Source of the DNA: a virus
Taxonomy: Duplodnaviria; Heunggongvirae; Uroviricota; Caudoviricetes
Virus record (IMG/VR): IMGVR_UViG_2718218100_000006
Reading direction: 5' to 3' (one strand)
DNA length: 48,504 nt
The first letter of the stretch is position 1; each line of letters starts with the position of its first letter. Position numbers: made by a program. This document shows, piece by piece, positions 18,001 to 21,000 of the stretch.

Positions 18001-21000
18001 GGGCGCACCTCAGCCTTCATCAGTGGTAAGGCACCGGAAATCAAACCCTCGCCCGGCGGCAACACGCCATCGGGTCCGTCTGCAGATACGTCCGTTCGCA
18101 CAATCTCCCTGCTGCCGGCAGCCGGAGAGGCTGCTGCGCAGGGCTGGAGCATTAAGGATGGCGGAATTCAGTTGTCAGATGGTGTATTTAAGATCACCAG
18201 GCAGAGCAATAAAACCTGGTCCCTGACGCATCCGGTGGATGACGCAATTACCCTGCTGACACAGGGCGGCAGACTGACCTGTAAGTTCCGCCTGTCAGGC
18301 GCGCTGACCAACAATCAGTTCGGGCTGGGGATTTATCTGTATACGGATGCTCCCGTTCCTGATGGTGTGGCGATGACGGGTACCGGTAATCCGTTCCTGA
18401 TGTCGTACTTTACTCAGACCACTGACGGCAGAGTGAATCTGATGCATCACAGGAAAGCCGGAAACACGAAGCTGGGGGAGTTCGGCGATTACGGTAACGA
18501 CTGGCAGACGCTGGAGCTGGTGTTCACCGCCGGCAGTGCCACGGTTACTCCGAAACTGAATGGAGTGGCTGGCCCGGCATTCCAGGTTATAAAAGACAGT
18601 CTGACACTGGGACTGAATGCGCTGACGCTGACGGATGTTACAAAAAATGCAGCGTATGGCGTTGAGATAGAAAGTCTGGTGCTGGAGATAAATGCACCGG
18701 CAGCATAATAAAAAAAGAGCCAGCGACTGACCTGAAAGAAGACGCTGGCTAAAAGGCCTTATATGTTTGTAGAGACTTATTTTTCACAGACAGCAATGAT
18801 GCCTGTCAATATATTATCAATATGCGGATTGTTTCAGTTACAGATGCTTTATTAAGGAAAAAAACAGCCAGCACTGACTTTCGGTGGAGAGGTGCTGGCT
18901 CAGAAGGATAGTTGGATTTCACATGATACTTATGCCTGGCGGTATATTTTCTGACAGACAGTGACGGGTGTTGTCAAGATATTGTGTCATTTATAACCTG
19001 AATCAGGGGGTGGCCGGAATGTTATCTGGCATTTTTAGCAGAGCCTGAATGCCATAATCACGGCTCCCGGCGTTGGCCGTCAGTGGGTGACACTGGCGGC
19101 TTTTTTGTTTTTCTTTACTTTCATTTTCTGTCGGCGGTGACGGAGACATACATCAGATGGAAAAAATCACAACAGGTGTGTCATACACCACGTCAGCGGT
19201 GGGGACGGGATACTGGTTACTGCAGCTGCTGGACAAAGTCTCTCCGTCCCAGTGGGTGGCGATAGGCGTGCTGGGGAGTCTGCTGTTTGGCCTGCTGACG
19301 TATCTGACTAACCTGTATTTCAAAATCAGAGAGGACCGTCGTAAGGCGGCGCGGGGGGAGTAAAGCGATGAAGAAAAAATACGAACTGGGTGTTAAAGGG
19401 ATAAATAATTACCCGGATAAGATTACTGTTACTGTGGCACCGGAAATTGGTGGGTATCCGTCACTGTTGTTGCCAGATGTGGCGATTAGTCTTGACCGTA
19501 CTGAAGGTGCCACGCTGGAGTTTTACGAAGCTGAGGCGAAAAAGCAGGCGAAGCAGTTTTTCATGGATGTTGCTGCCGGGTTATGTGAAGGGGATGGTCC
19601 GTTGCCGGAAAAGCGCCCCGTAATTTTAGAGGCGCAGGATGTGTTGATAACCTACAGAGGAAAACTACCGGGAATAATTACGGGTTCTCTGAAGACTCCA
19701 CCGCTGGCCTGAAGACTTAACATATCCAGGGATTTGAAATCGATAAACCCTGATAAATATCCATGAACGCAAAAATCAGATACGGCCTGTCGGCTGCCGT
19801 TCTGGCGCTGATTGGTGCAGGGGCGTCTGCGCCTGAAATCCTCGACCAGTTTCTGGATGAAAAGGAAGGTAACCACACCACAGCATACCGTGATGGTGCG
19901 GGTATCTGGACCATCTGCCGTGGAGCCACCCGGGGGGATGGTAAGCCTGTTATTCCTGGCATGAAGCTGTCGAAGGAAAAATGCGACCGGGTTAACGCCA
20001 TTGAGCGTGATAAGGCGCTGGCATGGGTGGAGAAAAACATCAGAGTGCCGCTGACCGAACCCCAGAAAGCGGGGATCGCGTCATTCTGTCCGTACAACAT
20101 TGGCCCCGGTAAGTGTTTCCCGTCGACGTTTTACAGACGGATTAATGCAGGAGATCGAAAAGGTGCCTGCGAAGCGATTCGCTGGTGGATTAAGGACGGT
20201 GGCAGGGACTGCCGTATTCGCTCAAATAACTGTTACGGTCAGGTATCCCGTCGTGACCAGGAGAGCGCGCTGGCGTGCTGGGGAATCGACAGATAAGCAG
20301 AATATTTTGCTGAAAAATGAGGTTTGCTTACATGGACGGATAACACGAAATCCTGCAAATTGGCAAAATGTAAGTGAATAAAGTCAAAACAGTTGTTTAA
20401 CACTCAGGCACCGTAATGATGCCTTTGTCATTTCTGCGCATCTCACGCGCATCTCACAACACAGAACCTTTCAGGATGACCCTTGAGGATACCGGTTTGG
20501 CTGTCGGTGCCTTTCTGTGGGCTGGATTCCTGTGAGACAAGGTTCATCACTAAAAGGAAATAACCGATGAATATGATGGCCGTGCCGTTTCACGGCAACT
20601 CTCTTTATGTAGTTAACCATAATGGCGAACCATACGTTCCCATGAAACCTGTCGTTGCGGGGATGGGGCTGGCCTGGCAATCACAGTTGGCTAAGTTAAG
20701 ACAGCGTTTTGCGTCAACTATAACGGAAATCGTTATGGTTGCTGAGGATGGGAAACAACGCAATATGGTGTCCATGCCACTTCGAAAACTTGCCGGCTGG
20801 CTACAAACCATTAATCCCAACAAAGTAAAACCCGAAATCCGCGATAAGGTCATCCGGTATCAGGAAGAGTGCGACGATGTTCTTTACGAGTACTGGACGA
20901 AGGGTTTTGTCGTTAATCCCCGTAAAATGAGCGTGATGGAAGAACTCAACCAGGCTTGTGCTGACATGAAACGGGATAAAAACATTGCCAGTGTGTTTGC

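Follow-up and report, generated by a model that had tools for sequence, protein, structure and literature searches.

What do the two diverged repeat units between nanS-p and the holin gene encode, and on which strand? The window analyzed here, a 48,504-nucleotide stretch of viral DNA (IMGVR_UViG_2718218100_000006; Caudoviricetes), is an Sp12-like prophage throughout, and its esterase-holin intergenic region does not differ in sequence from the one in Sp12 of E. coli O157:H7 Sakai. The first-pass annotation had described in this region two tandem units with an A-run, a hairpin, and a TGTCAA motif, and had offered structured RNA, protein-binding sites, or a relic of duplication as explanations. 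We find that the units are already known Hfq-dependent prophage sRNAs that have no Rfam family or RefSeq annotation. They are very probably two tandem minus-strand sRNA genes, antisense and convergent to the late operon, with unit 2 belonging to the PasA family (EcOnc51) and unit 1 being its diverged duplicate (EcOnc52). An unannotated, repeat-looking intergenic stretch is now assigned to Hfq-dependent prophage sRNAs that experiments have documented in EHEC and EPEC.

Two homologous units, read on the minus strand

Both units are present between nanS-p and the holin gene. The hairpin AGCCAGCG-N17-CGCTGGCT of unit 1 lies at 18718-18750 and the hairpin AGCCAGCAC-N17-GTGCTGGCT of unit 2 at 18866-18900 (two matches to the pattern versus 0.04 expected), each following seven A's on the + strand (18710-18716 and 18858-18864). 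The 48.5-kb window contains just two copies of the motif ACAGACAG-N10-TGTCAA-N-ATATT, one at 18786-18815 and the other at 18954-18983, where shuffles predict 0. Global alignment of 18709-18856 with 18857-19000 gave a score of 62, versus 14.2 +/- 5.2 for shuffled sequences (z = 9.2, 0/1000), and in a multiple alignment the units are identical at 66/103 positions, with 26 gapped columns. This homology bears out the proposed duplication. The units are unequal, spaced 148 nt from hairpin to hairpin and 168 nt from motif to motif, with about 18 to 20 nt of body missing from unit 1. Tandem Repeats Finder (score >= 30) reported no repeat at the locus because the copies are too diverged. As the first-pass annotation had stated, no ORF accounts for the region, with only mechanical ORFs of 30 and 38 amino acids overlapping it; the strong terminator that it placed ahead is a + strand terminator-like hairpin with a T-run at 19075-19111, before the holin gene.

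The elements of the earlier description hold up, but its strand does not: the functional strand is the minus strand and not that of the + late transcript. Read on the minus strand, the A-run and hairpin become a hairpin followed by a U-tract, that is, an intrinsic terminator. Indeed, seven T's follow each hairpin on the minus strand, whereas neither hairpin has a T-run behind it on the + strand. TGTCAA likewise becomes TTGACA, a perfect -35 hexamer that precedes the RNA 5' ends, mapped or inferred, by 30 to 35 nt. With terminator and TTGACA both on the minus strand, the order of each unit is promoter block, sRNA, terminator, opposite to that previously described (Table 1).

Table 1. Features of the nanS-p-holin intergenic region and its flanks, in window coordinates
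Feature	Position	Strand	Details
nanS-p, SASA-family sialate O-acetylesterase	16858..18708	+	ORF, annotated in RefSeq records of identical DNA; converges on both sRNA units
Candidate pairing site CUGGUGCUGGA, 3' end of nanS-p coding sequence	18676..18686	+	Complementary to 8 nt (CCAGCACC) of the PasA seed
Unit 1 RNA, diverged PasA/PasC paralogue, ~66 nt	18710..18775 (~18775->18710)	-	EcOnc52; 3' end of minor PasA form
Unit 1 intrinsic terminator	18710..18750	-	Stem AGCCAGCG/CGCUGGCU (18750->18718), C, U7 (18716->18710); also called by terminator scan
Unit 1 promoter-like block	18786..18815	-	AATATA-TTGACA-N10-CTGTCTGT, then GAAAAAT; geometry as in unit 2
Unit 2 RNA, PasA-family Hfq-dependent sRNA, ~85 nt	18858..18942 (18942->18858)	-	PasA alignment, probe, EcOnc51
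Unit 2 intrinsic terminator	18858..18900	-	Stem AGCCAGCAC/GUGCUGGCU (18900->18866), G, U7 (18864->18858)
Unit 2 promoter-like block	18954..18983	-	AATATC-TTGACA-N10-CTGTCTGT, then CAGAAAAT; TTGACA 18977-18972, 30-35 nt upstream of PasA 5' end
Class II holin S gene	19157..19363	+	Flanks the intergenic region
Anchors in Sakai Sp12	18858 and 18710		~2237535 and ~2237683, + strand there

Across 22 variants, 96% of terminator stem cells are paired. Both sides have changed in 3/9 stem pairs (column 91/117, GC:13 AU:9; column 90/118, CG:19 UA:2 UG:1), and neither shuffles nor slid registers reached the covariation score. Terminator hairpins of this kind, rich in GC and ending in U7, are the typical 3' structure of an Hfq-binding sRNA. 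Together with the published transcripts described below, the covarying stem confirms the structured-RNA option. A single nucleotide separates the end of the unit 1 terminator from the stop codon of the convergent nanS-p gene (18706-18708).

The promoter-like block is invariant in the 22 variants, whose loci were themselves chosen by this motif, and in the most diverged unit 1 variants (L098, L101, and L115) it is intact despite a changed RNA 5' body. The -10 regions are poor, consisting of TGAAAA/TCAGAA at 17 nt or GAAAAA/CAGAAA at 18 nt with an upstream TG, and this weakness explains why a consensus scan called a minus-strand promoter at neither TTGACA. The unit 1 hexamer is perfect and stands as far from the presumed 5' end as its unit 2 counterpart does, with a weak -10. 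We infer that TTGACA is the -35 element of a sigma-70 promoter in both units. Each unit comprises a promoter-like AATAT-N-TTGACA-N10-CTGTCTGT block, a short, mostly single-stranded 5' body, and a terminator hairpin with U7. The consensus scan also returned a promoter-like match on the + strand, CAGACA-17-TATATT, and CAGACA-17-GATATT can be seen by eye for unit 2. These matches were not adopted, as a discrete + strand RNA is undocumented.

Unit 2 is PasA-like and unit 1 is a diverged paralogue

PasA (pathogenicity-associated sRNA A) of enteropathogenic E. coli E2348/69 (NC_011601 743499->743415, minus strand; Table S6, PMC8550237) is a discrete transcript whose Hfq binding and Hfq dependence were demonstrated by northern, hfq-mutant, and RIL-seq data (PMC8550237). 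Like unit 2, it lies antisense in an esterase-holin locus, in prophage PP2. In PP2, too, the intergenic region holds two units in this layout, and it can be aligned with the window base for base. The published PasA northern probe GCCAGCACTGACTTTCGGTGGAGAG matches exactly at + 18866-18890. Unit 2 is identical to E2348/69 PasA at 43/43 positions of the terminator part (3' 43 nt), which includes the seed, at 39/41 of the promoter block, and at 31/42 of the 5' body, giving 113/126 over promoter block and RNA. Further, the EcOnc51 Hfq-CRAC peak of Sakai Sp12 corresponds exactly to minus 18914->18838. The position of the units, between the sialate esterase and holin-lysozyme genes and antisense to both, is that of the PasA/PasC family, and the context agrees with the published gene order "sialic acid esterase - pasA/pasC - holin/lysozyme," a PasD/STnc100-type RNA lying upstream of the esterase gene. 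The 11 differences from PasA in the 5' 42 nt of the unit 2 RNA fit the common "PasA-2" allele, which diverges in its first 40 nt (Zhu, Shabalina & Storz 2026, bioRxiv 10.64898/2026.05.13.724894). By this comparison unit 2 is probably a "PasA-2"-type allele; the allele name is our assignment, the published sequences being given in figures only. The PasA 5' end may derive from cleavage of a longer transcript (Zhu et al., bioRxiv 10.64898/2026.05.13.724894).

Unit 1 corresponds to EcOnc52: the peak in Sakai Sp4 (1181998-1182075, minus) is an exact match to window minus 18775->18698, and the reported peak values are similar (1.03M for EcOnc52 versus 1.09M for EcOnc51; PMC4104026). Its fold is a 5' single strand followed by the terminator (z = -3.7). 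It is identical to PasC at 71/101 positions and contains a unit-1-specific stretch, UCUCUACAAACAUAUAAGGCC. EPEC RIL-seq chimeras at 743267-743294 map to the terminator homologous to that of unit 1, always as RNA2 (the sRNA side), with five partners including escD. Discrete transcripts, which the first-pass annotation had made a test of the units, are thus documented by the PasA northern blot and RIL-seq (PMC8550237) and by the Hfq-CRAC peaks EcOnc51 and EcOnc52 (PMC4104026). The evidence for Hfq binding of both units comes from published data on identical or near-identical sequences in other strains. Because CRAC and RIL-seq reads map to several identical prophage copies at once, they do not prove expression of any one copy, including the Sp4 copy without unit 2.

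The published PasA seed, GCCAGCACCU (Fig. S5 text, PMC8550237), is unchanged in unit 2, where it overlaps the 5' arm of the terminator. Unit 1 carries GCCAGCGUCU (PasC-type stem) in its place, suggesting a different specificity if the same seed position is used. PasA RIL-seq targets E2348C_1246 and E2348C_0688 share the context GAUAGAAAGU CUG[G/A]UGCUGGA GAUAAAUGCA (Table S7, PMC8550237), and the nanS-p site in the window is identical in sequence to the E2348C_1246 version. The unit 2 seed may therefore pair with one site at the 3' end of the neighboring nanS-p mRNA. We propose that the unit 2 sRNA is made in the lysogen, is bound and stabilized by Hfq, and acts in trans by pairing with many mRNAs of core and virulence genes. 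The 3' end of unit 1 is likewise Hfq bound and serves as the sRNA partner in RIL-seq chimeras; a physiological role of the RNAs is presumed. PasA-type RNAs are multicopy and pathogen enriched and have RIL-seq contacts with LEE and bfp virulence mRNAs.

Weighing other readings of the units

A narrower interpretation makes only unit 2 a gene. Unit 1 would be a decayed duplicate retained as a back-up terminator that halts read-through from PasA 1 nt short of the stop codon of convergent nanS-p, and its 3'-end RNAs would all be 236-nt read-through or processed fragments. We consider this a real possibility, though one with less than an even chance of being correct. A minor 236-nt form of PasA (E2348/69 end 743264; Table S6, PMC8550237), treated by Pearl Mizrahi et al. 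2021 (PMC8550237) as minor read-through and not as a separate gene, does end at the terminator homologous to that of unit 1. EPEC unit 1 chimeras are also ~40-fold rarer than those of PasA (119 versus 4983, activating conditions), the -10 is weak, and unit 1 is absent from 31 of the 94 related complete intergenic regions, which carry one unit where the other 63 carry two. However, unit 1 retains the whole block with its perfect TTGACA even where the RNA body has changed. The EcOnc52 peak starts at 18775, as the unit 2 geometry predicts, and is about as strong as EcOnc51, and in Sakai Sp4 and several IMG/VR loci unit 1 persists where an insertion removed unit 2. Unit 1 may have a working promoter of its own and not depend on PasA read-through only.

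It is very unlikely that the units are explained by hairpins working on the + strand, either as elements that control processing or stability of the Q-antiterminated late transcript or as antisense or sponge partners affecting holin expression. The hairpins fold equally well on that strand, and the late transcript, which has to run through them, is complementary to both sRNAs over their full length; one + strand RIL-seq fragment opposite the PasA 5' end (743494-743512) was paired with PasB (PMC8550237). Nevertheless, the T-run is missing after both hairpins in this orientation, the RNAs detected by northern blot, CRAC, and as RIL-seq RNA2 are from the minus strand, and the TTGACA block has no evident + strand role. 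A + strand effect could be secondary to the sRNA genes and does not account for the units. Even less likely is that a phage or host regulator binds the DNA at the inverted repeats and at the ACAGACAG...TGTCAA motifs, the protein-binding option of the first-pass annotation. An inverted repeat with arms 17 nt apart and a conserved motif, each present twice, would suit such sites, but the compensatory stem changes conserve pairing and not sequence, and the repeats sit exactly at the expected terminators of mapped RNAs, with no protein known or needed. Least probable of all is that the region encodes small proteins. A 30-aa ORF at 18763-18855 (+) and a 38-aa ORF at 18806-18922 (-) exist mechanically, yet the latter crosses the PasA terminator and its T-run, where 6 or 7 T's among relatives shift the frame. 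The 30-aa ORF has no unit 2 counterpart and is missing from all one-unit intergenic regions, and neither ORF is covered by annotation in any matched record.

Known relatives and evolution of the region

Both units, read as minus-strand sRNA genes, are exact matches to EcOnc51 and EcOnc52 of Tree et al. 2014 (PMC4104026), who flagged predicted Rho-independent terminators. There the two appear as separate peaks in Sp12 and Sp4, without northern validation or further study, and their relation as adjacent paralogues is not described. Pas sRNAs have been explicitly contrasted with tandem duplicated sRNA pairs such as OmrA/OmrB and PrrF1/PrrF2 (Zhu et al., bioRxiv 10.64898/2026.05.13.724894). That unit 1 is, on sequence grounds, a tandem paralogue of PasA/PasC is a small new point that went unrecognized in this 2026 Pas survey. 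PasC (E2348/69 PP5) shares the locus and upstream block with the window; its stem AGCCAGCG/CGCUGGCU is of the unit 1 type and its body of the unit 2 type. In contrast to the window, the PasC-type region has one unit, lacks one hairpin-to-hairpin period (~18712-18858), and has its own loop sequence.

Other pairs offer partial parallels. OmrA/OmrB and PrrF1/PrrF2 are also adjacent, diverged duplicates with a common promoter/terminator architecture and partly different bodies, but in those pairs, in contrast to units 1 and 2, it is established that each copy is transcribed independently. AsxR and AgvB (RF02703/RF02702), from lambdoid and Stx prophages, resemble the units in being very short, Hfq bound, antisense and convergent to the late operon, and beside a moron, with a conserved terminator and a variable 5' region. 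They lie between the moron and nanS-p and not between nanS-p and the holin gene, and identity with them was rejected on account of this other intergenic region and of their Rfam models, which were unmatched in the window (gathering score) and at 18600-19200 (E <= 10). No Rfam family matched the region at gathering score, and only chance snoRNA-type matches appeared in 18600-19200 at E <= 10. Without Rfam or RefSeq annotation, these sRNAs will be rediscovered by genome scans. HnrS, a 66-nt multicopy RNA of prophage late regions (PMC13502914), resembles unit 1 in length but was rejected as its identity, since HnrS is EcOnc10/11/12 and EcOnc10 lies at window minus 22154->22106, 3.3 kb away. A full-text literature search with the hairpin sequences gave no matches, and a Neisseria mucosa contig found in the genome-contig motif scan is a chance match without homology to the window.

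The units are conserved in relatives, a point on which the first-pass annotation had staked its proposal. The one-unit form of the intergenic region is short by exactly one repeat period. Near-100% conservation of unit 1 is uninformative, as the adjacent noncoding DNA is equally conserved; the 5' body of unit 2 is hypervariable, with 79 to 93% identity versus ~100% in the flanks. We see roughly even odds for a fuller scenario, in which unit 1 would be an independently transcribed third PasA/PasC member with its own targets and the region would evolve through tandem duplication and through deletions or fusions of exactly one period between the two terminators, the PasC type being the fused one-unit form. 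If so, the hypervariable 5' body of unit 2 would sit in a cassette-like frame for swapping sRNA specificities. The tandem paralogue pair and its one-unit derivative (PasC type) are a modest addition that bears on the diversification of phage-borne sRNAs.

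Two hairpin units and their strand

The intergenic region at 18709-19156 lies between the 616-aa ORF annotated as nanS-p and the 68-aa ORF of the holin gene (see table). Here the first-pass annotation had described two hairpin-plus-motif units, read on the plus strand, as a diverged tandem duplication, and the feature itself is confirmed. The hairpins at 18718-18750 (unit 1) and 18866-18900 (unit 2) give two matches against 0.04 expected; the window holds exactly two occurrences of the motif ACAGACAG-N10-TGTCAA-N-ATATT, where chance would give none; and the two units, aligned globally, score 9.2 standard deviations higher than shuffled sequences. 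Their lengths differ, the spacing being 148 nt between hairpins and 168 nt between motifs, and Tandem Repeats Finder did not detect the repeat, its copies being too diverged.

The plus-strand reading, however, was wrong. Each hairpin is directly preceded by seven A on the plus strand, where a T-run is absent after both; on the minus strand each is followed by T7, and both are intrinsic terminators. A terminator scan called that of unit 1 and missed that of unit 2 only because its loop exceeds the scan's length limit. On the minus strand, the plus-strand TGTCAA reads TTGACA, which is the consensus for a -35 hexamer. The T7 runs and TTGACA thus indicate that each unit reads the opposite way, from an AATAT-N-TTGACA-N10-CTGTCTGT block through a short RNA body to the terminator. 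In unit 2 this perfect TTGACA stands 30-35 nt before the 5' end of the known sRNA PasA, and in unit 1 it is equally far from where the EcOnc52 peak begins. The -10 elements are weak, whether taken at 17 nt (TCAGAA and TGAAAA) or, with a preceding TG, at 18 nt (CAGAAA and GAAAAA), and a consensus promoter scan called no minus-strand promoter at TTGACA. We infer that the block is the putative promoter of each unit; the PasA 5' end may be made by processing (Zhu et al., bioRxiv 2026).

A structured RNA had been suggested, and folding predicts RNAs with a single-stranded 5' part ahead of the terminator. Across 22 distinct aligned variants (A1), 96% of cells in the terminator stem are paired, and both sides have changed in three of nine pairs (G-C 13 / A-U 9; C-G 19 / U-A 2 / U-G 1). 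Neither the covariation score nor the percentage paired is attained by any shuffle, and pairing drops to 21-49% in every slid register.

Annotated features of the window
Feature	Position	Strand	Basis or detail
DicF	4223-4274	minus	Rfam match
sok antitoxin	12433-12607	+	Rfam match; adjoins mokC/hokC-type gene in Sp12
STnc100	16548-16720	+	Rfam match (101.8 bits; E = 3.6e-21), immediately upstream of nanS-p
nanS-p, SASA-family carbohydrate esterase	16858-18708	+	RefSeq annotation of identical DNA
Unit-1 terminator	ends 18710	minus	AGCCAGCG...CGCTGGCT-C-TTTTTTT
Unit-2 terminator	ends 18858	minus	AGCCAGCAC...GTGCTGGCT-G-TTTTTTT
Class II holin	19157-19363	+	annotation
EcOnc10 (HnrS)	22106-22154	minus	exact match to Sakai Sp12 Hfq-CRAC peak
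sar RNA	38042-38108	minus	Rfam match

Unit 2 and the PasA family

PasA of EPEC E2348/69 starts at 743499 on the minus strand of NC_011601, between E2348C_0688 and E2348C_0689 (orientation > < >), its major form of 85 nt ending at 743415 and its minor form of 236 nt at 743264 (PMC8550237, Table S6). Its northern probe, GCCAGCACTGACTTTCGGTGGAGAG (PMC8550237), matches the plus strand of the window exactly at 18866-18890, which places the RNA on the minus strand. The E2348/69 PasA locus (L001) has the same two-unit layout and aligns with the window base for base, placing the PasA 5' end at 18942 and the 3' ends of its major and minor forms at the terminators of units 2 and 1, respectively. The two are identical at 43/43 positions of the terminator, 39/41 of the upstream block and 31/42 of the 5' body, and the PasA seed GCCAGCACCU, which is located within the 5' arm of the PasA terminator, is unchanged. 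EcOnc51 and EcOnc52 are noted as EHEC homologues in the PasA table (PMC8550237, Table S6). EcOnc51, an Hfq-CRAC peak of Sakai Sp12 (2237479-2237555, +; Tree et al., PMC4104026), matches unit 2 exactly (minus strand, 18914 to 18838).

At the level of sequence, unit 2 belongs to the published PasA family, with every testable defining feature present; the feature is already known. It fits the 'PasA-2' allele, in which the 3' end is shared and the first 40 nt diverge (Zhu et al., bioRxiv 2026), a name that we infer. PasA is made in the lysogen without induction, requires Hfq to be stable and base-pairs with dozens of mRNAs (PMC8550237). One of its listed target sites, CUG[G/A]UGCUGGA within GAUAGAAAGU...GAUAAAUGCA, is the 3' end of the mRNA of the adjacent esterase (PMC8550237) and is found at 18676-18686. 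Most likely, the strand opposite the late operon gives rise in both units to short RNAs that bind Hfq and end at the terminator.

Unit 1 and EcOnc52

EcOnc52, an Hfq-CRAC peak of Sakai Sp4 (1181998-1182075, -; Tree et al., PMC4104026), matches unit 1 exactly (minus strand, 18775 to 18698). Unit 1 is identical to unit 2 at 66/103 positions and to PasC at 71/101, and the block architecture is common to them. On these alignments unit 1, the catalogued but uncharacterised EcOnc52, is shown to be a diverged tandem paralogue of PasA/PasC, in line with the proposed duplication. It evidently lies outside the BLAST-defined copies of Zhu et al. A minor added point is that the locus may be a tandem pair of paralogous sRNA genes.

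We give independent transcription of unit 1 about an even chance. Its entire promoter-like block is kept even in the most diverged variants with a changed RNA body, the EcOnc52 peak starts where the geometry common with unit 2 would put it and has a reported value similar to that of EcOnc51, and unit 1 remains where insertions have removed unit 2 (Sakai Sp4 with IS629; several IMG/VR loci). These observations count against the account of the original authors, who give only a minor read-through form of PasA for the unit-1 end (PMC8550237); that the 3' end comes from this form alone seems to us somewhat less likely than not. The EPEC RIL-seq entry 'pasA.E2348C_0688.IGR' consists of fragments 743267-743294 (-) (PMC8550237). 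These fall on the unit-1 3' end and are always RNA2 (sRNA-side), with five partners including escD. Against a gene of its own, these chimeras are about 40 times less frequent in EPEC than those of PasA, reads map to several identical prophage copies, and unit 1 is absent from one third of related loci.

A 3-bp interval within ~18826-18830, ~20 nt upstream of the unit-1 TTGACA, carries three different junction sequences, from Sakai Sp4 (L003) and three IMG/VR loci, one being the IS629 end as in Sp4. At each junction unit 2 is removed and unit 1 with its block is intact; the interval may be an insertion or recombination hotspot.

Related loci and prophage context

The window is a lambdoid prophage of E. 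coli O157:H7, 98.3-99.9% identical to Sakai prophage Sp12 across most of its length and identical to it in the esterase-holin intergenic region. It differs by a different tail end and an extra insertion at 6536-7843, ~1.3 kb without counterpart at that position in Sp12. The insertion holds a match (6870-6986) to the ALIL pseudoknot, a frameshift signal of IS3-family elements, and is therefore probably of IS629 type.

The gene arrangement matches the published Pas synteny, sialic acid esterase - pasA/pasC - holin/lysozyme with PasD/STnc100 upstream of the esterase (Zhu, Shabalina & Storz, bioRxiv 2026); STnc100 is related to PasD (Zhu et al., bioRxiv 2026). E2348/69 prophage PP2 has the same order (STnc100/PasD - esterase - PasA - holin). 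AsxR and AgvB resemble the units in design, being short antisense sRNAs with variable 5' ends that are encoded next to morons. They were rejected as candidates because they lie in the other intergenic region and their Rfam models have no match here. HnrS, a 66-nt multicopy prophage sRNA, was also rejected as a different gene. EcOnc10/11/12 have been renamed HnrS, which represses hha (Poudyal et al. 2026); the EcOnc10 match brings the Hfq-bound sRNAs in the late region of the window to three at least. The DicF, sok and sar matches are further known prophage regulatory RNAs.

The units are conserved in relatives. A motif scan of IMG/VR gave at least 120 loci, among which motif conservation is biased by their selection on that motif; two copies, 167-169 nt apart, occur in 74 and a single copy in 48, some of the latter cut by contig ends. 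Complete esterase-to-holin regions (n = 94) are two-unit in 63 (471-484 bp) and one-unit in 31 (326-338 bp), the one-unit form lacking exactly window ~18712-18858, one hairpin-to-hairpin period. The E2348/69 PasC locus (L002) is of one-unit type, with the upstream block and body of unit 2 and the stem of unit 1. Variation is concentrated in the unit-2 body (18870-18945; 79-93% identity among distinct sequences), and the sequence around it is ~98-100% identical. In a one-genome-per-species collection, Escherichia albertii (L125) carries a genuine two-unit locus; the only non-Escherichia motif match, on a Neisseria mucosa contig (L126 1647-1676), has surroundings unrelated to the window and was rejected as a chance promoter-like match.

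The segment 18985-19156 is ~100% conserved across 54 distinct related intergenic regions, and EPEC RIL-seq lists a plus-strand fragment from the matching region. Plus-strand terminator-like hairpins with T-runs lie at 19013-19038 and 19075-19111, shortly before the holin gene. Variation within the segment is confined to a short G-rich tract at 19004-19013, which reads as C-rich on the minus strand and is located ~30 nt upstream of the unit-2 TTGACA; the tract differs in length and composition among otherwise identical regions (CCACCCCC, CCTCCCC, CTCCCCCCCCC and others).
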